Assembly: GCA_001029635.1 (NCBI GenBank)
Contig: CP011209.1
Location: 80,983 to 144,982 of the forward strand
Direction of reading: 5' to 3'
DNA length: 64,000 bases
Source of the DNA: Candidatus Wolfebacteria bacterium GW2011_GWB1_47_1
GTDB taxonomy: Bacteria > Patescibacteriota > Minisyncoccia > UBA6257 > UBA9933
The first letter of the stretch is position 1; every line of letters begins with the position of its first letter. The notes beneath the pieces are model-generated. The model saw only the letters and a list, made by a program, of their open reading frames with translations, ran no database searches and was not told the DNA's origin. Of the stretch, positions 3,600-48,181 are shown one piece after another. A program made the position numbers and the translations under genes.

Positions 3600-4763
3600 C
3601 TATGCGAACTCGATTTTGTTGTCCCGGAGTACTGCAACGTCCGCTCCGAAATTCAACTGTCTCAACGTTTTCAGTACTTCGTCAGGATAGAGCCCGGGGA
3701 CCATGACGATCACAAGATCGACCGGATTTTCCTCCAAGTGGCTCGGTGCCACGATATTAAAATGTGTGACCGGAGTGAATCTTCCCTGTTTGAACTTTGC
3801 GGAATCAATCACATAGGCAATATCGGTGATATTACTCAGTGCCAGCAGCGTTAATGTTCTATGACCCGCCCCCCACACCGCTATCTTCTGGTTATTTGTC
3901 ACGTAGGTTGCGACGAGACGCTGCAGCTCGTTAATGAGCAAATGCATCGGACCGCGGCGACCAAAAAGGTTTAGAGCCTCTCGCTTTTTCACCGTTGCCG
4001 CAATGTCATTCTCTTCGTTGATGATCCGGCATTCCAGTACGTCAAACCCGTTTGCCTCAAAAGCATGGGTCAACGTCCTCGTCGTGAAGTACGAAATGTG
4101 ATCGGGAACGAATTCGTAGAGACATTTCGTCTTAAGCAGGTATTCCAGGTTGGGGACAGTTACAAACCCCACGGCATTGGCCGCCAAGTTGCCGGATATG
4201 TTTTCGATAATCCTACCAGGATCGGGCAAATGCTCGAGATAGTTCAGACAGATGAACGCATCGAAGGGGCCTCCGGCTATCGCGCCCCTGTCTCCGATGT
4301 ACCGCTGGACCATCGTCCTACCCAAAGCCGCTCCCCTCTCTACCGATTTTCCGGACGCTTCCACCCCTGTTGCTTGCATGCCGACTTCTTCCAAAACATC
4401 CAGCATCGCACCTTCGCCACAGCCGATATCCACTACCTTTTTACCTGCAAGTCCGAATCGCTCGACCAACTCTTGCATCTGGCCCAGCCGGGACAATCTT
4501 GCCTTCTCGGATAATGAAGCGGCGGTAATAACCTCCTTGAAGTAGTCCACTGGCTGCATCCCATGCTGCACCAGTCCGCAATGCGAACACTGCTTGATCG
4601 CCAGGGTAATGCCGGTGTCCTCGGCAAATTCATCGATTTCCGGATAATACTGGGCAGCTTTTGGCATCCCTTTCAAAAGAAGAATCTGACCTGCGGGTAG
4701 TGCGTGATTGCACAAATGACAGCGGTTGTTCGAATCCATGGTTCTCTCCTCCTCTGTATTCAA
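3600..4763 (-). CDS. SAM-dependent sugar C-methyltransferase (TylCIII/NovU-like: N-terminal Zn-ribbon + class I MTase + C-methyltransferase C-terminal domain)
   Basis: 387 aa; CHLCNH...CSHCG zinc-ribbon, a VVDIGCGEGAML SAM-binding motif, and a long C-terminal domain. Architecture is typical of NDP-hexose C-methyltransferases. RBS GAGGAGGAGAGAA upstream. Confidence 0.6.
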   Translation of the reverse strand: MNTEEERTMDSNNRCHLCNHALPAGQILLLKGMPKAAQYYPEIDEFAEDTGITLAIKQCSHCGLVQHGMQPVDYFKEVITAASLSEKARLSRLGQMQELVERFGLAGKKVVDIGCGEGAMLDVLEEVGMQATGVEASGKSVERGAALGRTMVQRYIGDRGAIAGGPFDAFICLNYLEHLPDPGRIIENISGNLAANAVGFVTVPNLEYLLKTKCLYEFVPDHISYFTTRTLTHAFEANGFDVLECRIINEENDIAATVKKREALNLFGRRGPMHLLINELQRLVATYVTNNQKIAVWGAGHRTLTLLALSNITDIAYVIDSAKFKQGRFTPVTHFNIVAPSHLEENPVDLVIVMVPGLYPDEVLKTLRQLNFGADVAVLRDNKIEFA

Positions 4764-6783: not shown

Positions 6784-7833
6784 TCACCAGTTGATGTCTT
6801 TCCAGCTTGCGGGATACTGCTTGGACTTCTCTATTTGCGGCAGGATCTTCTGATAAAACTCGGAGTCCCGGTTACCGCAGAGGCAACTCTGCTTGCAATC
6901 GTACGAGAACCACTGCATCGCCAGTCCGCGTTTGACGATCGTCTCAAGATCTTCTTCGAAGATATTCCCGAGACTGATCGGAATCCACGGGCAAGGCAAT
7001 ACGTCGCCGTATGCCGTGATTGAGAAGTGCTTTTTGAGACACAGGCAACCGAACTCGTGGCCATTGTTGACCGACAGATGCGTAGACGCATTATATATAT
7101 CGGTCAACGACTGGATGTACTGCAGATCCTTGGTATCCAGGATCTCATCCTTGGAATCCTCGAACGCGCCGGTCGCCTTCGCATAGATCATGCTGACGTG
7201 CTGATTGAACTGTTTAACGAATTCCAGCTGCTCGATCAGCTCGCCCGACCCGACGAGACTCTTCGTGACTACGATGTTGATGATGACGCCCAAGCCATGC
7301 TTCCTGCACAACTCCAGGGCATCGATGCATTTTTGCCACGATCCTTCCACACCCCTGAATGCGGTATGGTTAGCTTCCAGGCCGTCGATGCTCAGGTGGA
7401 TCCGGTCGACGCCGATGTCGACCAGCCACTTGATCGTTGCTTCATCCAGTCGGGACCCGTTCGTATCCATGCTGATCACAAACCGTTCCGGCCCGATCGC
7501 ATCGACGATGTCCTTGAGGTTGGGGAAGATCAACGGCTCTCCGCCGGATATGCAGATGCTCGCCAGGCCCATTGCATCTGCCTGATCAGCAATTCGCTCG
7601 ATGTCGGCGATAGCCAGAGACCTTCCGCCCCTTTGCTTAAACCGCTCGATGGCGCAATGCTTGCATTTGAAGTTGCACCGGTAATCGCACTGCAACTGGA
7701 TCAGGGCAACGCTTTCCTTGTTCGCAATCTTCTCCGGATGCCTGATGATCTTTGCGTATGCAAGCGGCTTCCGCTCCTTCAATTCACCCCGTGTCTTTAT
7801 TTCCCGTTCCGTCTGTCCATGCTGGTTAGCCAT
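6784..7833 (-). CDS. radical SAM protein with C-terminal Cys-rich (SPASM/twitch-like) auxiliary-cluster region
   Basis: 349 aa; CNFKCKHC = CX3CX2C motif, GGEPL. C-terminal cysteines (CLCLKKH...CPWIP...CKQSCLCG). RBS AGGGAGGT. Tightly coupled to the HAD gene. Confidence 0.7.
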   Translation of the reverse strand: MANQHGQTEREIKTRGELKERKPLAYAKIIRHPEKIANKESVALIQLQCDYRCNFKCKHCAIERFKQRGGRSLAIADIERIADQADAMGLASICISGGEPLIFPNLKDIVDAIGPERFVISMDTNGSRLDEATIKWLVDIGVDRIHLSIDGLEANHTAFRGVEGSWQKCIDALELCRKHGLGVIINIVVTKSLVGSGELIEQLEFVKQFNQHVSMIYAKATGAFEDSKDEILDTKDLQYIQSLTDIYNASTHLSVNNGHEFGCLCLKKHFSITAYGDVLPCPWIPISLGNIFEEDLETIVKRGLAMQWFSYDCKQSCLCGNRDSEFYQKILPQIEKSKQYPASWKDINW

Positions 7834-7837
7834 TTGT

Positions 7838-8599
7838 CTACCTCCCTTTCTTCAGTAATGAGATTATCTCGTTGAGTGCTCTTGCCTTCATATTCGAAAA
7901 ATCCGAAAAGTTGCCGCCAGGATCAAACAGTATGCTTTGACAGTTGAAGTTGTTGGCCATCCTAATGTCGCTTTCGGGCATGTCCCCTACGACGCAAATT
8001 CTCTCCGGCGAAAGCCCGTGCTCTCTGCATAGCAGTTCGAGCATGTACGTATTGGGCTTTCCGACGTGAACATCTGGAGCATGACCCGTTGCGTTGACGA
8101 TTGCGGCAACCAAAGCGCCGCAACCCGGCAATCTTCGATTATTCTCAATCGGATACGAAGAATCGCCATTTGCGACTATTAGCTTGGCTCCTCCATCGAT
8201 CGCGTCCAGCGCCATTGCTATTTTTTGATAGCTGAATGCTGGGTCGATTCCTACGACCACGGCGGATACGCCCGGATCTTCCTTGATGACAATTTCATTA
8301 GACATCAGCTCTCTCCGCAGATCATTGGTGCCGATTAAGTAAATGGGTCCGATCTCTTCCTCTACTAGATAATGAGAAATGCCACGAGCAATGCAATACG
8401 TATTCCCGCTGTGTGCCGGAAAACCAAGGTTGTTCAACTTGTCGACGATCTGCTTCCGCATCTTCCCGGAATTATTCGTCAGGTAGAATATTCGATACCC
8501 CTCCGCTTCAAGAGCGGCAATGGTTTCGATTGCCCCTTCGACGACTTTTTCACCGAGATACAGAGTGCCGTCCAAATCAAAAACAATGCTATCGATCAC
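7838..8599 (-). CDS. HAD-superfamily hydrolase, subfamily IIA (NagD-like sugar-phosphate phosphatase)
   Basis: 253 aa; FDLDGTLY (motif I), GKP, VGD(M) motifs. GTG start preceded by GGGAGGTGG. Confidence 0.7.
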   Translation of the reverse strand: MIDSIVFDLDGTLYLGEKVVEGAIETIAALEAEGYRIFYLTNNSGKMRKQIVDKLNNLGFPAHSGNTYCIARGISHYLVEEEIGPIYLIGTNDLRRELMSNEIVIKEDPGVSAVVVGIDPAFSYQKIAMALDAIDGGAKLIVANGDSSYPIENNRRLPGCGALVAAIVNATGHAPDVHVGKPNTYMLELLCREHGLSPERICVVGDMPESDIRMANNFNCQSILFDPGGNFSDFSNMKARALNEIISLLKKGR

Positions 8600-31116: not shown

Positions 31117-31196
31117 GCCCGGGTGGCGGAACTGGTAGACGCACACGACTCAAAATCGTGCGAGAAATCGTGGGAGTTCGAGTCTCCCCCTGGGCA
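31117..31196 (+). tRNA. tRNA-Leu (anticodon CAA), class II with long variable arm
   Basis: GCCCGGG acceptor stem, D-loop GGAACTGGTAGA, anticodon loop CT-CAA-AA, long variable arm, T-arm GGGAGTTCGAGTCTCCC, discriminator A; no encoded CCA. Confidence 0.8.
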
Positions 31197-36552: not shown

Positions 36553-37242
36553 TTATTCCCCTTTCTTTTCTATATCAATCGGGGTCTTCATTTTCATAAA
36601 TGTCGGGAATCGAAATGGAATAGTGATGGTTGCCTTGGGCATGACCAGGTCAGGAACCATCAACAATAACATGGCACTAAAGAACGAAAATACGCTCGCA
36701 AGAATGAATACGATATCGAATCCAAATGCATTTGCGAGTCCACCTCCAACAAATGCGGCAACCCCGGAGGCAAGCCCGATCGTCGTACTATCAAGCGACC
36801 AATCAAACGCATAATGTTCCTTGTCTAGATGGCGGGAAAAAATGCCAGACCATGCCGGCGCATACAACCCGAATGATAAACCCTGCAAAAATGCGACGAT
36901 ATACAATGTTGAGATATCTGTAACAAGCAGGTATGCAAGCGCAGTAAACCCGGCAAGCAACAAGGCGAGGATGAGCGTATAGAAATCATCACGCTCTCCC
37001 TCGTGGCGATCAAGCGTGATGGCGACCGGCAATTGAACCAACGACTTGGTGATCCAATAGGTTGCCACAACACCGCCAACAGTGGCGACCGTCGCTCCAG
37101 GGATGGATTCAACAAGGAAGATTGAGAAGATCGGCCCAATCAATCCCCATCCACCCCACAGCATAAGGTCGGACATGACAAAAAACTTGATAATGCGATT
37201 GATTTTCAATCCGGTCGTATCGATGTTTATTTTGATTCTCAT
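36553..37242 (-). CDS. hypothetical 6-TM membrane protein (MFS-like half)
   Basis: 229 aa, hydrophobic. Confidence 0.4.
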   Translation of the reverse strand: MRIKINIDTTGLKINRIIKFFVMSDLMLWGGWGLIGPIFSIFLVESIPGATVATVGGVVATYWITKSLVQLPVAITLDRHEGERDDFYTLILALLLAGFTALAYLLVTDISTLYIVAFLQGLSFGLYAPAWSGIFSRHLDKEHYAFDWSLDSTTIGLASGVAAFVGGGLANAFGFDIVFILASVFSFFSAMLLLMVPDLVMPKATITIPFRFPTFMKMKTPIDIEKKGE

Positions 37243-37271: not shown

Positions 37272-38087
37272 TTATTCTAAGGGACTTTTAATGTTCTTCA
37301 ACATCGGGTTTGTCACTTTCGTATATATTTGCGTCGTCCTAATGTTAGCATGACCGAGTAATTCTTGCACATAGCGCACATCGACACCATTTTCCAATAA
37401 GTGTGTAGCAAAGCTGTGACGCAAAGAATGGAATGTCGCATCTTTTTGAATTCCCGCATTTTGTAATGCGCTTTCAAAAACCTTTTGTGCGGTCCGCTCA
37501 GTTAATTTTCCGCCACGTTCGCTCGCAAGTAAATATTCATTAAAATCACGCCCCGCTATCAATTTACTTATACCATTATTTAATATTTCCGGGAATACCG
37601 TAATGCGATCCTTATTTCCTTTTGCACCCTTGATATGGATTGTTAGCTCTGCCAAGTTTATGTCTTTGATCTTCATATTGACAACCTCACTAACTCGCAA
37701 TCCTCCGGCATAAGCCAATGAAACCATCAGGTTATGTTTTTCATTAGCAATGCCATCTAATAGCGATTGAATTTCGGAGCGGGACAGCACTACTGGCAAT
37801 TTGCTCGGTGTCTTGGCAAAACGGATATCTATTTTTCCGCGATAATTCAACACATTCCAGTAGAAGAAATTGATGGCCTGCAAAGCTTGGTTGGTTGTTT
37901 GTGAAGATTTACCGGCATCTACCTTAGACAGCAGATATGTTTTAATAAAATCCACATCGACTAAATTGAGATTCTCGCCTTTTGCGCGTAAATAGTCGGC
38001 AACACACACACGATAACTCTTGATCGTTTTAGGGCTATAATTCCGCAGCCGCAATTCGTCCTCCAGCTTTTTTAAATAGACGTCCAT
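37272..38087 (-). CDS. tyrosine site-specific recombinase, XerC/XerD-like (phage integrase family)
   Basis: 271 aa; C-terminal catalytic region HSLRHSFATHLLENGVDVRYVQELLGHANIRTTQIYTKV (R...HxxR...Y). Confidence 0.8.
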   Translation of the reverse strand: MDVYLKKLEDELRLRNYSPKTIKSYRVCVADYLRAKGENLNLVDVDFIKTYLLSKVDAGKSSQTTNQALQAINFFYWNVLNYRGKIDIRFAKTPSKLPVVLSRSEIQSLLDGIANEKHNLMVSLAYAGGLRVSEVVNMKIKDINLAELTIHIKGAKGNKDRITVFPEILNNGISKLIAGRDFNEYLLASERGGKLTERTAQKVFESALQNAGIQKDATFHSLRHSFATHLLENGVDVRYVQELLGHANIRTTQIYTKVTNPMLKNIKSPLE

Positions 38088-38192
38088 ATAGACATGGTAT
38101 ATAATAATGAAGGTGTGTTCAAATTATATGTGATATTCGCCTAGTCAGCAATATTGAGTAGCATATACGAAAACACTTCGCATATAAATGAG

Positions 38193-38367
38193 TTACGCAA
38201 AATGTCGTTCGGCTTCACTCCATTTTTCGTAACGTGGAGCTTTGCGAGGGTTGGGCTTCCTCTCTTCCCTATCGGGACAAGTAAACAAGCCTCGCACCAC
38301 ATCGCCTAACAACCGCTTGGCGGCGTCCGCCCAAATCCCGCTCCGCGGGACTTCGCAAAGCTCCACG
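38193..38367 (+). repeat. 175-nt structured repeat, copy 1 (with a diverged ~28-nt 5' extension from 38166)
   Basis: 100% identical to copies 2 and 3. Contains a 12-bp hairpin (TTACGCAAAATG...CATTTTTCGTAA), a 15-bp closing stem (CGTGGAGCTTTGCGA...TCGCAAAGCTCCACG) enclosing ~106 nt with small GC hairpins (GGCGG-CGT-CCGCC; CCCGC-TCC-GCGGG), and an internal GCCTAAC. Confidence 0.8.
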
Positions 38368-38523
38368 TTCAACGAAATAAATTTTTTATCTTGGTGAAAA
38401 TTTAAAGTTTTGTGAGATAAATGGGGACAGAAAATTTGATTTTTTATTAATTTAAAGAGGGGGATACGGAGTTTTTCTGCTCTTTGGGGAGCAGAAAAAA
38501 TTAATTCATTTATAATCAAAAAT

Positions 38524-39135
38524 ATGCTCGAAAAACCTTACATTCCATCGCAAGCTGAAATGGAAAAAGCTGAAACAATGGCAGCTGATTATCAAAAAAC
38601 ACCCGAACAAGTCAAGGAGGATGAAGAAAAAAAAGACAAAAACAATGAGGCTCTAATTTCAGATTTAGCTGGAATAGAGATTTACGGCTCTAATTCAGTG
38701 AGTGAGCAGATAAAACAAAATTATGCTGAAATGGCAATTAAAGTCATCACTGATATAAATAAAAGCGCAGGAAAAAAATTATCATGGACTTTTAGGTTAT
38801 TTGGACCGAAATCAGATAAGGATATGAAATTCAAAATGGAGGAAACATTGAATAATATGGCAGCAGCTTTACGTCTTGAGCATGAGAAGGCAGCAAACGA
38901 GGTGGGCCTAATTCGCAAGAGAGGCGATAATACAGAAATGGATAAATTTATTGCGGAAAGAGAACTAGAAAGAAAAGGCCTCTTGAAAAGTTTAAAGGAA
39001 GGATATGCCGATTTTGTATTAAATAAAGACGAAGGAACAATTCAGATAGGTATGACATCGGATGGCTATAAACTTAAATCTGGAGAATTAATGAATTTTG
39101 ATGAAATAACAAAATACATCAGAGAGAATATGTAA
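38524..39135 (+). CDS. hypothetical Lys/Glu-rich protein (cassette ORF between repeat copies 1 and 2)
   Basis: 203 aa. Confidence 0.4.
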   Translation: MLEKPYIPSQAEMEKAETMAADYQKTPEQVKEDEEKKDKNNEALISDLAGIEIYGSNSVSEQIKQNYAEMAIKVITDINKSAGKKLSWTFRLFGPKSDKDMKFKMEETLNNMAAALRLEHEKAANEVGLIRKRGDNTEMDKFIAERELERKGLLKSLKEGYADFVLNKDEGTIQIGMTSDGYKLKSGELMNFDEITKYIRENM

Positions 39136-39388
39136 TGCCGATGAGGAGTTTTGAAAAATGAAATTCACCCCTAGCCCCTCTTTCATTTTTCAAAAGAAAA
39201 AATCAAATTTTCTTATACGATAAACTAATGTATAATGAATTTAATAACGAGATAAAAAATTGACATCGTCGAACAACTCATATCTGGCTCAAGAAATTGA
39301 CACTTTAATGTTTCAGATGAAAGCCAATTTCTTTCGACCCAAATTTTTTCGCAATTGCATTGCGCAAAAACTTCAGATATAAGTAACG

Positions 39389-39563
39389 TTACGCAAAATG
39401 TCGTTCGGCTTCACTCCATTTTTCGTAACGTGGAGCTTTGCGAGGGTTGGGCTTCCTCTCTTCCCTATCGGGACAAGTAAACAAGCCTCGCACCACATCG
39501 CCTAACAACCGCTTGGCGGCGTCCGCCCAAATCCCGCTCCGCGGGACTTCGCAAAGCTCCACG
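39389..39563 (+). repeat. 175-nt structured repeat, copy 2
   Basis: Identical core; 5' flank GTAACG shared with copy 3; 3' junction ...CCACG|TTGGAC. Confidence 0.8.
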
Positions 39564-39683
39564 TTGGACGAAATGCCATAAGGAAATTAGGGGGATGGCA
39601 CATCGTCCAACACTGTGTATCTGGTTTCATGAAAAGGGATTCAACAAATAATCTTTTACAATTCAAAATGCCATTTTTTGGGA

Positions 39684-39716
39684 TAAAAAAATCCGCCAAT
39701 CTTTCGAGAGGCGGAG
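39684..39716 (-). terminator. rho-independent terminator after small cassette ORF
   Basis: TCCGCC-loop-GGCGGA hairpin followed by T7 on the minus strand. Confidence 0.5.
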
Positions 39717-39743
39717 GATGTGTTGTTTGCTGATTTATTATGT

Positions 39744-39941
39744 TCAGCTCATATTTTTCTTGACGACCTCGAGATTGCTTTCGAGCAGCTCTTCCTTGAC
39801 GTCGTCGTCGATGTCATCCCATGCGTTGTCCAATCCTCTGCGGCCTGTCAGATCGCCGAGGATAGCAAACAGAATTTTTTTTGCCGGTTCGGTCGGCTTG
39901 GTTGTGTAGCGCTCCTGAAACTCCTCAAGTAACGTTGTCAT
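39744..39941 (-). CDS. small acidic hypothetical protein (65 aa; cassette ORF between repeat copies 2 and 3)
   Basis: ATG at 39941 preceded by GAGGAGG (6-nt spacer); MTTLLEEFQERYTTKPTEPAKKILFAILGDLTGRRGLDNAWDDIDDDVKEELLESNLEVVKKNMS. ORF-track 118-aa version is probably over-extended. Confidence 0.45.
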   Translation of the reverse strand: MTTLLEEFQERYTTKPTEPAKKILFAILGDLTGRRGLDNAWDDIDDDVKEELLESNLEVVKKNMS

Positions 39942-40171
39942 AAAGTCCTCCTCATGATTTTGATATATTATCCAAATGTTGTTGAATAATATATTATGAT
40001 AGCACATTATTCGTTGTATGTCAAATATAGAGGAGTAAAAATTCCAAAAATGGCTCAAGTTAAGGAAATTATTTGTTGAATTCCTTTTCATTCCACCCAA
40101 ATTTTTGCTTCTTTTATCTATTTGAACTAATATTGAGGAAGCGAAGCAAAAACTTCAGATACACAGTAACG

Positions 40172-40346
40172 TTACGCAAAATGTCGTTCGGCTTCACTCC
40201 ATTTTTCGTAACGTGGAGCTTTGCGAGGGTTGGGCTTCCTCTCTTCCCTATCGGGACAAGTAAACAAGCCTCGCACCACATCGCCTAACAACCGCTTGGC
40301 GGCGTCCGCCCAAATCCCGCTCCGCGGGACTTCGCAAAGCTCCACG
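40172..40346 (+). repeat. 175-nt structured repeat, copy 3
   Basis: Identical core; 3' junction ...CCACG|CTATGCGAAGACGTTGTAC differs from copies 1 and 2. Confidence 0.8.
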
Positions 40347-40392
40347 CTATGCGAAGACGTTGTACGAAATTACTTCTTTATTAGGTACTATA

Positions 40393-40426
40393 AAAATCCC
40401 GCCGATACGATCGGCGGAATTTTTTA
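40393..40426 (-). terminator. rho-independent (bidirectional) terminator after Clp ATPase gene
   Basis: CCGCCGAT-ACG-ATCGGCGG stem flanked by A5 / T6. Confidence 0.55.
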
Positions 40427-40467
40427 TGCTTCCCACGCAAAACCCCGGGAGTGAGCCCATGAGGACT

Positions 40468-43002
40468 TCATTCTCCCATATTCACGAACCGCACCTCCTC
40501 GCCTTCGAGCGTTAGGTGTAAATGACTCCCCTTTCGCACCTCCCCCCGCAAGATCATCTCGGCAAGCTCACTCTTGATGCGATCGTTGATCACGGTGCGT
40601 AGCGGACGGGCGCCGAATACCGGATCATAGCCAACGTTCGCCAAATGTTCCACGACGGCATTGTCGATCTCCATCGCGATGCCTTGTTCTTCGCCGAGCG
40701 TCTTTGCCAACTTTTGTATCTGCATGCGCGCAATGGCGATTGTGTCGTCGACCGACAGATTCTTGAATATGATCACATCGGAAAAACGATTCAATAATTC
40801 AGGACGGAAATATCCAGTCAATTTCTTCTTAAATTCATCCTTAATATCTTCAATATTACGCCCCGCCTCGATAGATTCCTTAATGAAATCGGAATTTGCG
40901 TTGGACGTTGCGATGACGATAGTGTTCTGGAAATCAACCACGCGCCCCACGTTGTCGGTGATGCGCCCATCGTCGAGTACCTGCAGGAAAAGATTCAATA
41001 CGTCCGGATGCGCCTTTTCGAATTCATCCAATAGAATTAGGCTATACGGCTTCTGAATCACCGACTCGGTAAGCGTGCCGCTCATCTTGCCGTCAGGGGT
41101 TCCGATAAATCGAAAGATGCTTTGCTTGTCCTGATATTCGGACATATCGAAGCGGAGCAGCAGCTGGTCAGACCCAAACTGCGTCTTTGCCAAAATCTTT
41201 GCAAGCTCCGTCTTACCGACGCCCGTAGGCCCAACAAAGAGAAATGTGGCAATCGGCCCGTTGGATCGGGCAAGTCCGCTGCGATACTGACGCAATGCGC
41301 GTGCGACTGCGGTGACCGCCTGTTCCTGGTCGATCAGATTCTGATGAATAATATCCTCGAGATTGAGTAGTTTCTCTGCTTCCTCCTTGGTCGTCTTATG
41401 GATCGGGATATTGATCTTCCGCTCGGCAACGGCGATGACGATCTCATCGGTAAGCATCTTTTCTCCCCGCTGGGTTGCGTCGGCAAGTGCCTCTTTAAGC
41501 AGATCTTCCGCACTCGCGGGAAGAAGCTTTTGTTTAAAATATTTATGAGCGATCGAAACGGCGGCTTTAATGGCTTCAAAGCTGATGACGACGTTGTATT
41601 GCCGTTCCAGGATGATGCCGGAATAGATCAAGACACGAATGGAATCATCCTCAGAAAGCTCTTCGACGCGAACCACTTCAAATGCATTGAGAAAATCGGT
41701 ATGCGGTTCGATCTCGGTCTTCATTTCCTTTGCATAAGAAGACCCGATAACCTGAAACGCATCACTGGCAATGGCCGGCAACATAAGCGTGGCCACATCC
41801 ATATACCCTTCCCCCGACGTCTTGAATAGATTATGAATATCGGGGATATAGAGGATGATATTCTTTGCCGCAATGATCTCCCGAACGACGGTATTGACCC
41901 GAGTAGAAATTTCTTCAGGCCCCGCGCCGGAAACAAGTTCTCCAATAGAAAGCGCAACAAGCCGCTTATCGAATAGCTCCTCAGGAACTTTGTCTTTGAC
42001 GATATTAAATGCCAAATGGCTGACGATGGTCTCTTTTCCACTTCCCGGATCGCCCACTAAAAGAACATTCTGCTTTGCGGCGCGAGAAAGAACATTAACA
42101 ATTGTTCCATATTCCTGTTCGTGGCCAATCAAAAACCCGACACGCTGTTCGCGAGCAAGATCGGTCAGGTCGTCGCTAAACATATCCAATGTCGGCGTAA
42201 CGCGCGCAGTCCACGCACGATTCATAATACGATGTCGCCCTCCTTTGCGACCAAACCCGCCAAGCGTGGAAGGGATAGTCTTGAGCCACGCAAATCGCTG
42301 TCGATAACGGCTAAAGATGAGTGCCTTTTGTAGATCATTTGTATCAAGCGAGAAGAGATAGAACACGCGCCGCACGGCGGCATCGTCAACCGTACCCAAT
42401 GCGGAAAAAAGATCATTGAGAGCAATATACTTTCCCCCGTTGTCATAGGCATCCATGAATGCGACCTTCACCAATATATGAATGCGCGAAAGCAGTTCGT
42501 CATGAGCATAAAGGTTCGTATTTTTGTACTTCTCGACTTCTTCATCAATCTTATGCTCAAACTCCTCCGGAGAAATCTCAAGCCGCCACAAAGCGCCACG
42601 AATGCCGTCATCCCGAATAAGCGTCTTCATGAGATGCAAATAATAGTTACCCCCGGCGATCGCGGTTTTATCAAGCGCACGGATAATTACGCGGAAACTC
42701 TTTGGTAAAAGATATTGGGTAATATTAACTCCTTCGATCTCATCTGCCTTCAGATCGGTGATCGCATGCAATGGAGTGTTAATATGTAAGGCTCGGTCGA
42801 TCAGCACCAGGGTGCACAAGATGCCGAACCAATACAACCATTCGATATCGGACAATACCGCAAGGATAGTGCCTACGGTGAATATGGCATAAAACGCATA
42901 CGTGATCAGCCCCCATAAGAAGCGCAATGATGCGGAGAATTCGAGACGCGGATCAGAGAAGGTGAGTTTTTCAACGGGAAAGTTCGTGTTCATACCAATC
43001 AA
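40468..43002 (-). CDS. Clp/Hsp100-family AAA+ ATPase (ClpA/ClpB/ClpC-like) with N-terminal transmembrane region instead of Clp_N
   Basis: 844 aa; D1 Walker A is GDPGSGKE (non-canonical), D2 GPTGVGKT canonical; N-terminal ~60 aa hydrophobic. ORF-track start is TTG; ATG (MNTNFPV) at 42993 is an alternative. Confidence 0.7.
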   Translation of the reverse strand: MIGMNTNFPVEKLTFSDPRLEFSASLRFLWGLITYAFYAIFTVGTILAVLSDIEWLYWFGILCTLVLIDRALHINTPLHAITDLKADEIEGVNITQYLLPKSFRVIIRALDKTAIAGGNYYLHLMKTLIRDDGIRGALWRLEISPEEFEHKIDEEVEKYKNTNLYAHDELLSRIHILVKVAFMDAYDNGGKYIALNDLFSALGTVDDAAVRRVFYLFSLDTNDLQKALIFSRYRQRFAWLKTIPSTLGGFGRKGGRHRIMNRAWTARVTPTLDMFSDDLTDLAREQRVGFLIGHEQEYGTIVNVLSRAAKQNVLLVGDPGSGKETIVSHLAFNIVKDKVPEELFDKRLVALSIGELVSGAGPEEISTRVNTVVREIIAAKNIILYIPDIHNLFKTSGEGYMDVATLMLPAIASDAFQVIGSSYAKEMKTEIEPHTDFLNAFEVVRVEELSEDDSIRVLIYSGIILERQYNVVISFEAIKAAVSIAHKYFKQKLLPASAEDLLKEALADATQRGEKMLTDEIVIAVAERKINIPIHKTTKEEAEKLLNLEDIIHQNLIDQEQAVTAVARALRQYRSGLARSNGPIATFLFVGPTGVGKTELAKILAKTQFGSDQLLLRFDMSEYQDKQSIFRFIGTPDGKMSGTLTESVIQKPYSLILLDEFEKAHPDVLNLFLQVLDDGRITDNVGRVVDFQNTIVIATSNANSDFIKESIEAGRNIEDIKDEFKKKLTGYFRPELLNRFSDVIIFKNLSVDDTIAIARMQIQKLAKTLGEEQGIAMEIDNAVVEHLANVGYDPVFGARPLRTVINDRIKSELAEMILRGEVRKGSHLHLTLEGEEVRFVNMGE

Positions 43003-48096: not shown

Positions 48097-48181
<85 letters not shown>

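Follow-up and report, generated by a model that had tools for sequence, protein, structure and literature searches.

Which kind of system places the gene of a short tyrosine recombinase beside identical, strongly folding repeats that are separated by unrelated sequences? This question arises in a 64,000-nucleotide (nt) stretch of contig CP011209.1 (hereafter the window) from Candidatus Wolfebacteria bacterium GW2011_GWB1_47_1. The source population is Candidatus Wolfebacteria of the Rifle aquifer, which belongs to the Candidate Phyla Radiation (CPR/Patescibacteria). An initial annotation of the window had described a 271-aa XerC/D-like recombinase followed by three identical 175-nt repeats, and had proposed a cassette array that is integron-like or mobilised by Xer. 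The open reading frame (ORF) of the recombinase and the three base-for-base identical copies are as described there, the repeat being 176 nt long when a shared G is counted (hereafter E176). Comparison with related loci supports the general reading of a recombinase-linked cassette array. We consider that the locus is probably a platform for the site-specific recombination of gene cassettes, a functional analog of the integron that employs a Xer-family (XerA-like, 'Cand') tyrosine recombinase. We class this platform as integron-type but distinct in its recombinase subfamily and in the architecture of its sites.

The window was compared with the loci of orthologous recombinases L019, L021, L023, and L025 and with about 30 loci on genome contigs. 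After the AAC that ends a cassette, and before the GTT that opens the following one, comes a conserved junction unit of 60-190 nt. Such units are found between cassettes across CPR phyla, upstream of orthologous recombinases, and also in three Spirochaetota loci from metagenome-assembled genomes (MAGs). In the orientation of the window, cassettes start with GTTnnnnCGAAAT and end with ACATCGnnnnAAC, a near-complement of the start, and units end with ...ACTTCrnATAT-(7-8 nt)-C|GTT. The layout of the unit is AAC|GTn-P1L-GAAGT-hairpin A-ATTTGGGYGGA-hairpin B-GGAACC-P1R-T|GTT. The cassette ends are cassette-specific inverted repeats, usually of 17-30 nt and up to 70 nt, which always differ at positions 10-11 (AA vs TG), while the cargo differs in every lineage examined. 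Since the relatives share this architecture without E176, E176 is not the basic recombination site, and the earlier proposal that the repeat itself is the attC-like site has to be given up. On the other hand, a diverged 5' extension that had been noticed on copies 2 and 3 is real and represents junction units 1 and 1' (Table 1), the key element of the locus.

A covariance model of the junction unit (hereafter R1), built from 12 units, none of them from E176, gave 58 matches across 87 loci. In the CPR loci, all 40 of 40 matches lie upstream of the recombinase on the recombinase-sense strand, in arrays of up to five units. The three Spirochaetota loci (L085 5731-10089, L061 1349-4045, and L055 13371-13478; assignment as given by MAG binning) carry unit arrays together with a short XerA-like recombinase, and the L085 array lies downstream of the recombinase and on the other strand, which is the inverse of what the CPR loci show. 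In the window, R1 matches are confined to the array, namely unit 1 (117 bits, a training sequence of the model), part of unit 1', and the 3' ~70 nt of every E176 copy (minus strand, E 3e-7 to 3e-9). The 3' end of the repeat thus holds one unit.

Array 1 of the window (38192-40370) consists of E176, the ORF203 cassette with unit 1, E176, an empty 49-nt cassette with unit 1', E176, and an orphan arm, following an attI-like site beside the recombinase gene. ORF203 (38524-39135, plus strand) is framed by terminal inverted arms at 38367-38391 (GTTCAACGAAAT...) and 39250-39274 (...ACATCGTCGAAC). One orphan ORF had been assigned to each spacer; ORF203 and ORF65 indeed exist, but the second spacer contains no simple ORF cassette. 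Its true cassette is empty (39563-39611), and ORF65 (39744-39941, minus strand) lies inside a hairpin arm of unit 1', enclosed by a 24-bp inverted repeat (39629-39652 / 40068-40091) that contains ATTCAAC / GTTGAAT. ORF65 has a near-consensus promoter (TTGACA-17-TATCAT with TG, 40024-39996) and a hairpin after its stop codon. Its placement may reflect cargo carried inside a unit hairpin, or else a secondary insertion site. Neither ORF203 nor ORF65 has a match in Pfam, NCBIfam, or PHROG, and the sole PADLOC match, to Cas1g for ORF203 (E 0.006), was not significant. At the array end, no partner arm and no further unit were found before the clpB-like gene at 40468-43002 (minus strand), and the orphan arm is probably the original right arm of the site.

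Table 1. Coordinates of the features of the recombinase locus and of related cassette ends (positions in the window unless a locus is named).
Feature	Coordinates	Strand	Basis
Tyrosine recombinase, 271 aa	37272..38087	-	ORF; PF00589 + PF13495
attI-like double-strand core site, ATATACGAAAACACTTCGCATAT-AAATGA-G|TTACGCAAAAT	38163..38203	.	Conserved upstream of recombinase in CPR loci
E176 copy 1, read as cargo-less composite cassette	38192..38367	-	Copy identity; R1 match 38299-38378(-), E = 8e-9
Gene cassette 1 with ORF203	38367..39274	+	Inverted repeat I2; cassette-arm signature
Junction unit 1 (attC-like three-way junction), AACTCATATCTGG...CCCAAAT...ACTTCAGATATAAGTAAC	39275..39387	-	Folds; P1 covariation; consensus structure
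E176 copy 2	39388..39563	-	Copy identity; R1 match 39495-39574(-), E = 3e-9
Empty cassette, 49 nt: GTTGGACGAAATGCCAT - 15 nt - ATGGCACATCGTCCAAC	39563..39611	+	Read off sequence; arm signature AA vs TG, positions 10-11
Junction unit 1'	39612..40170	-	Inverted repeat I1; partial R1 match 40029-40182(-), E = 2e-5
E176 copy 3	40171..40346	-	Copy identity; R1 match 40278-40357(-), E = 3e-7
Array end: CTATGCGAAGAC, then unpaired arm GTTGTACGAAAT (40359-40370)	40347..40370	+	Read off sequence
Cassette-end modules, 85-92% identical	L023 6051-6135 / 7812-7901; L049 6340-6414 / 7903-7992; L035 410-485 / 4225-4296		

The recombinase contains the PF00589 (Phage_integrase) and PF13495 (SAM-like) domains. 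It passes the NCBIfam model NF040815 (recomb_XerA_Arch) with 228 bits against a cutoff of 220, which places it in the Xer family, and its closest solved structure is XerA (5HXY, E = 5e-41). The catalytic residues Arg131, Lys153/156, His220, Arg223, His246, and Tyr255 are invariant in 12 homologues and align with those of XerA and IntI, so that the R-K-H-R-H-Y set is intact. Homologues with 75-82% identity occur in Wolfe-, Moran- and Pacebacteria and often overlap downstream housekeeping genes. A 'Cand' subgroup of simple tyrosine recombinases from candidate phyla is treated as Xer-related by Smyshlyaev et al. 2021 (PMC8138268). We assign the recombinase to this subgroup only by the description of the group.

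A distance of 104 nt separates the attI-like site from the start codon of the recombinase gene, and the first E176 copy is likewise 104 nt from the gene. The half-sites of the attI-like site form an inverted pair (38164-38173 / 38175-38185), followed by a spacer (38186-38191) and a junction at 38191/38192, after which comes an arm of the GTTnnnnCGAAAT type. On the recombinase-sense strand, the site reads ATTTCGnnnnAAC|TnnTTTATATrCGAAGTGTTTTCGTATA. Two inverted arms of 10-11 bp around a centre of 6-8 bp are present, as in a Xer-type core, and the conserved form, ATTTCGnnnnAAC|TnnTTnnTATrCGAAGT, is found 71-162 nt upstream of the start codon in 24 of 34 CPR recombinase loci, compared with 3 of 23 non-CPR loci and 7.5% of random windows. 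The count of 24 comes from a looser pattern with these controls, a strict pattern under-counting at 13 of 34. A primary site beside the gene and an array leading away from it are thus both present. The half-site ACTTCGTATA (ACTTCGCATA in the window, 38175-38184; L019 7912-7921) equals the innermost 10 nt of the loxP arm ATAACTTCGTATA. We regard this match as probably coincidental and not as a sign of a Cre/lox relationship.

Cassette arms and units have kept their pairing while changing in sequence. In 19 cassettes from about 12 organisms, 18 of 24 arm pairs are changed on both sides, and none of 500 shuffles performed as well. The P1 stem, compared in 15 units, is 88.5% paired; both partners have changed in 9 of 11 pairs (0 of 500 shuffles), and controls in which the stem was slid drop to 16-56%. 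On the recombinase-sense strand, arm position 10 is an invariant T.G pair, and in 16 of 19 cassettes a T.T mismatch follows at position 11. The RNAalifold consensus is a three-way junction whose two hairpins are closed by the conserved motifs, with further invariant G.T pairs. Relative to an attC site, an analogous logic is seen in the conserved AAC/GTT, the two covarying helices, and the fixed defects, but the architecture is another one, a three-way junction with long arms.

These structures are also strand-polar. In 13 of 16 units, folding is better on the recombinase-sense strand than on the other (p = 0.007), and the motif GCGNAGC occurs 30 times on this strand of 49 units and never on the other, with about one occurrence expected. 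RNA-type loops are not enriched (GC-GNRA-GC, 1 vs 1; CUUCGG, 1 vs 8). According to Hirao and co-workers, d(GCGNAGC) sequences reportedly form exceptionally stable DNA mini-hairpins. This 30:0 strand bias favours single-stranded DNA over RNA and is the best available argument for it. As a separate observation, units of distant phyla have the motif ATTTGGGYGGA, which reads TCCRCCCAAAT in window orientation, in nearly invariant form (e.g., window 39317-39327, reverse complement; L023 5983-5993). In the RNAalifold structure, the GG(T) of this motif forms pairs with the (A)CC of GGAACC, and the motif may be purely structural or may be a protein-binding site.

The same cassettes and repeats are found in different arrays. 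A census beyond the window revealed a fourth identical E176 in a second array, array 2, located 57 kb from array 1 on the same 283-kb contig, between relA/spoT and rnpA-dnaA and without a recombinase. Array 2 begins with a second copy of the attI-like core, identical over 30 nt, and continues with E176, a LysE cassette and unit, a rearranged E176, a YgjV cassette and unit, and a truncated hp1, the first hairpin of E176. E176 has therefore been copied to at least four positions in the genome. A cassette encoding a 73-aa zinc-ribbon protein was detected only on ~1-kb contigs, in seven assemblies, and lies after attI-E176 in L112 and L018 but after a different hairpin and a 19-nt GC mini-unit in L115. 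Between L115 and L018/L112, a DNA identity of 100% sets in exactly at C|GTTGTGCGAAATG, and the DNA that precedes this point is unrelated. This breakpoint, C|GTT (C|GTTGTGCGAAAT), coincides with the predicted crossover, and the suggestion that recombination falls at the ...CCACG|TT junction thus gains comparative support. The zinc-ribbon protein gave nothing meaningful in Pfam, NCBIfam, PHROG, or PADLOC.

Several side observations concern these contigs. The rearranged E176 of array 2 (L105 10739-10856, also L016 2069-2186) has a 40-nt segment between GCGAGG/CCTCGC inverted and a segment between the direct repeats TCGCA...TCGCA deleted; it is probably real, since independent assemblies show the identical form. 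Contig L016, in which ORF203 is joined to LysE, is probably a chimeric join through the repeat. A strain-specific replacement of the cassette after ORF203 was considered for L016 and rejected, as the long contig places LysE/YgjV in the separate array 57 kb away. Four zinc-ribbon contigs (L018, L110, L111, and L113) have terminal direct overlaps of 22-88 nt in E176, all of which imply a length of 989 nt (cassette, unit, and E176).

In the mechanism that we propose, the attI-like site, ~100 bp upstream of the gene for the recombinase, would be the point from which cassettes stack outward. A long stem with fixed defects and a three-way junction on top would form when cassette-end arm, unit (P1 and two hairpins), and cassette-start arm fold together on the recombinase-sense strand. 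The defects, T.G and T.T at arm positions 10-11 and a 3-vs-1-nt internal loop at AAC/GTT, would give the folded site its polarity. The recombinase is predicted to bind arms of the A(T/C)TTCG-N4-6 type and to exchange strands at AA|C / G|TT, either between a junction and the attI-like site or between two junctions. Cassette circles would thereby be excised, and circles would be inserted into the attI-like site or into a further junction. The enzyme would probably prefer as its substrate the cassette's own arms and unit, folded from the recombinase-sense single strand, which should be the lagging-strand template here if replication begins at dnaA, and the recombination product would be resolved by replication. 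The comparisons directly show the anatomy of the locus, its covariation and polarity, its link with the recombinase, and one cassette whose differing contexts end at a breakpoint at C|GTT; we infer that this recombinase is the catalyst, that its substrate is single-stranded DNA, and that cleavage falls at exactly this position.

Several findings weigh against this proposal. Unlike in classical integron cassettes, genes point in both directions, and one of them at least, ORF65, is preceded by a promoter of its own. In L021 and L115, junctions occur that consist only of a GC hairpin of 19-23 nt and lack the ACTTCG half-site. Every assembly of the strain has the same array 1, with no gain or loss seen there, and the 989-nt circular signature fits repeat-bounded assembly as well as it fits an excised circle. 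The 92.8% pairing of the cassette arms is inflated because the cassettes were found by an inverted-repeat search, although the number of differing sequences that keep the pairing is unaffected, and covariation alone cannot distinguish DNA from RNA. Finally, a complete double-strand core is present at every junction, so folding may be mechanistically dispensable.

This last point leads to the alternative that survives best, a Xer/dif-module system acting on duplex DNA only (pdif-like, or like the integrative mobile elements exploiting Xer, IMEX), which we consider unlikely. The recombinase would then be the chromosome-dimer resolvase of the lineage with an adjacent dif, recombination would occur between directly repeated duplex cores, and the inverted arms would be by-products or terminators/insulators. 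Such a mechanism could operate because each junction has a complete duplex core, with two inverted half-sites and a 7-8-nt spacer at each unit|cassette junction. The XerA-like character of the enzyme, its conservation across CPR classes, its operon-like contact with housekeeping genes, and the Xer-related status of the 'Cand' subgroup in Smyshlyaev et al. 2021 (PMC8138268) agree with it as well. However, the cassette-specific arms and P1 covary to keep their pairing, which duplex binding sites do not need, and neither the strictly strand-polar defects nor the GCGNAGC bias fits a duplex substrate. By hand count, junction units have one nt more than the attI-like site between AAC and the CGAAGT-type half-site, and the two spacers hence do not match. 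Nor does the attI-like site behave as a single dif at the terminus: two attI-like copies are present, the GC skew is negative and monotonic over all 64 kb without a switch, and dnaA-dnaN lies ~61 kb from the recombinase (contig Ga0209212_1000035). The absent skew switch and the distance to dnaA indicate that the attI-like site is origin-proximal, not terminal, and on these grounds a classical dif was rejected.

E176 itself can be dissected within the cassette platform. No further copy is present in the 64 kb, and a 28-mer from it occurs exactly three times in the window vs 0 in 100 shuffles. Piece 1 is a hairpin of the 'empty cassette' type (hp1, 38192-38233), piece 2 an outer stem arm (38234-38249), piece 3 a nested mini-cassette in decayed form (38250-38310) with ACATCGCCTAAC as its final arm, and piece 4 a unit core (38311-38366) whose far arm forms the 15-bp 'closing stem'. 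E176 starts with GTT and is followed by GTT, as is any cassette with its unit. We read it as a cargo-less composite cassette made of an empty hairpin, a nested remnant, and one junction unit. An hp1-like hairpin with a GC-rich unit also lies beside the attI-like site in L019, L021, and L115. Of the stems described earlier, the closing stem is perfect over 15 bp (38233-38247 / 38353-38367), but the first hairpin, given as 12 bp, has 13 bp with one mismatch (38192-38204 / 38221-38233). The GCCTAAC heptamer, which had been taken for the R'' consensus of attC, belongs to the cassette-end arm ACATCGCCTAAC and does resemble R'', although it sits in the decayed mini-cassette.

Could E176 instead be a selfish non-coding repeat of the type of miniature inverted-repeat transposable elements (MITEs), or a multi-copy structured RNA gene, that lies near the recombinase by coincidence? 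Its copies are perfectly identical and GC-rich amid AT-rich DNA, both strands fold strongly (z = -5.6 and -4.9 vs shuffles), copies exist 57 kb away without an adjoining recombinase, and the invariant G.T pairs of the units would be natural as G.U in RNA. We nevertheless regard this explanation as improbable. No duplications flank E176, and every known copy is confined to an array behind an attI-like site and ends exactly at GTT junctions. A model from the junction units of other organisms detects its 3' part, its loop motifs are DNA-type rather than RNA-type, and relatives carry the array without it. In Rfam 15, no family matches E176 at the gathering threshold and nothing credible appears at E <= 10 in 38000-40500, so the structured-RNA option that had been raised for the repeat found no family match. 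A further candidate, insertion of the repeat into palindromic terminators, was rejected, as the complementary arms pair across cassettes and not across the repeat.

Searches with parts of E176 gave few matches. An internal 29-mer had no matches in the genome-contig collection, and the 3' 21-mer matched a single 1-kb metagenome contig, L018. Two assemblies show internal deletions in every E176 copy (L002, GCA_001000945.1, 7853-7990, 8598-8730, and 9751-9896; L012, GCA_001002795.1, 9719-9844, 10865-10981, and 11589-11711). The deletions remove ~30-50 nt at roughly positions 20-80, with end points unlike from copy to copy, and could be assembly artefacts at a strong hairpin or real hairpin-mediated deletions.

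The system resembles integrons in several respects. Here too, small cassettes, most of them with a single gene, form an array beside a divergently oriented tyrosine recombinase gene, with a distinct primary site by the gene and imperfect-palindrome sites whose halves are at opposite cassette ends. The boundary is G|TT / AA|C, helix defects give polarity, and the recombinase-sense ('bottom') strand folds better. The folded site corresponds in logic to R''-L''...L'-R' of attC, and cargo-less cassettes and a second, recombinase-less array similar to a cluster of attC sites lacking integron integrases (CALIN) also have counterparts there. A canonical, if divergent, integron with IntI and attC would account for the divergent gene, the GTT/AAC boundaries, the folded imperfect palindromes, and the 214 bits scored with the integron-integrase model TIGR02249. 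We consider it extremely unlikely. The TIGR02249 match is split into two separate stretches and stays under the 265-bit cutoff. In the alignment with VchIntIA (2A3V), residues 5-172 of the recombinase correspond to IntI 6-176 and residues 195-270 to IntI 242-317, leaving 22 aa where VchIntIA has 65. The additional domain around patch III that is absent here is specific to integron integrases (Messier & Roy 2001, as cited in PMC9668308). Since the XerA-like recombinase is missing this domain, the system is not an integron by membership; the earlier remark that it is too short for IntI was correct, whereas the insertion sought by alignment is not there. The sites also differ from attC as 60-190-nt three-way junctions with GAAGT, ATTTGGGYGGA, GGAACC, and cassette-specific outer arms of 17-30 bp (up to 70 nt). 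Genes in both orientations, at least one with its own promoter, and hosts among CPR bacteria and some Spirochaetota MAGs are further differences.

A segmental duplication or an assembly artefact is scarcely credible, for although identical repeats confuse assemblers (L002 and L012 show differing internal repeat deletions, and L016 joins arrays 1 and 2 through the repeat), the three-copy arrangement was recovered in at least seven independent assemblies (JGI, NCBI, ENA), the sequences between the copies are mutually unrelated, and identity stops at the same functional junction in every copy.

Folded sites are also used by Xer recombinases. In CTX-phi, XerCD uses a folded single-stranded attP, in which inverted dif-like half-sites form a hairpin that mimics the core. 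The present system resembles IMEX of the CTX-phi type, judged from general knowledge of CTX-phi, in its Xer-family recombinase and in inverted half-sites ~60-190 nt apart that could fold with mismatches in or near the centre. In contrast to CTX-phi, it consists of arrays of tiny cassettes and not phage genomes, has no phage genes, does not lie at the terminus, and has many tandem insertions, each with its own folded site. The attI core had no matches in the viral-contig collection. The pdif modules of Acinetobacter plasmids are similar small gene modules bounded by Xer-type sites, and XerS-difSL likewise has its recombination site directly beside the recombinase gene, but both differ from the long structured units with covarying stems, the chromosomal polar arrays, and the single recombinase of another subfamily found here. 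The 'Cand' proteins, Xer-related and from candidate phyla, are an already catalogued family; Smyshlyaev et al. 2021 (PMC8138268) presume a role in Xer dimer resolution, and the passages searched there do not mention cassette arrays or structured sites. The system thus works like an integron and like the CTX-phi-type use of folded sites by Xer, and is a member of neither.

We give about even weight to the broader proposal that CPR bacteria and some Spirochaetota possess a lineage-wide, integron-like form of gene capture. It would employ a short Xer-type recombinase without the IntI domain and folded single-stranded DNA three-way-junction sites stabilised by DNA GNA mini-hairpins. Such a system would either have invented the integron principle independently or represent a living intermediate that links recombination of the Xer/dif (IMEX) type with integrons. 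In the open-access literature searched, we found no description of cassette arrays or structured sites tied to this recombinase family; most subscription journals lay outside this search, and an earlier description is possible.

Integrons are the textbook gene-capture device, and the route from Xer-like ancestors to IntI and attC is unresolved. If our reading is true, a Xer-type cassette platform without the IntI domain would make the origin of integrons experimentally testable, and it raises the question of what a plain Xer fold needs for hairpin substrates. The CPR is a huge radiation of ultra-small symbionts whose horizontal gene acquisition is poorly known, and the platform would represent a dedicated route of gene flux in these bacteria. 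It would also explain a recurrent assembly break beside this gene in CPR MAGs: by hand count, a contig end lies <=600 nt upstream of the gene in 20 of 31 CPR-type contigs vs about 2 of 49 others, which fits repeated or variable DNA at this place. With its compact size of about 270 aa, the recombinase may, together with its structured sites, possibly be of use in genome engineering.

Further observations concern cassette ends and more distant loci. Cassette-end modules of 75-90 nt are 85-92% identical among Pacebacteria, Gracilibacteria, and another Patescibacteria MAG (Table 1), while the cargo between them differs, and L039 and L072 have cassette ends in common. This pattern suggests that the modules are exchanged or conserved independently of the cargo. 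Weak R1 matches (E 0.001-0.009) were found near XerA-like genes in L053 1-136 (Pacearchaeota, DPANN), L073, and L079 (Flavobacteriia), which may be distant relatives or chance matches. The upstream region of L053 contains an AAC|ACTATCATATCGAAAAT-like site.

As for the surroundings of array 1, the tRNA genes at 31117-31196 and 48098-48181 (plus strand) are the sole Rfam gathering-threshold matches in the window, and neither adjoins the array. Directly downstream of the recombinase, a gene at 36553-37242 (minus strand) encodes 229 aa that match only the N-terminal half of the MFS_1 profile (7-175 of 347); its form is identical in all assemblies, and either the gene is truncated or it encodes a half-size transporter. 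The ClpB-like protein adjoining the array has 844 aa and carries, before its AAA+ modules, a hydrophobic-looking N-terminal region of ~280 aa without a domain match, which is unusual for ClpB.

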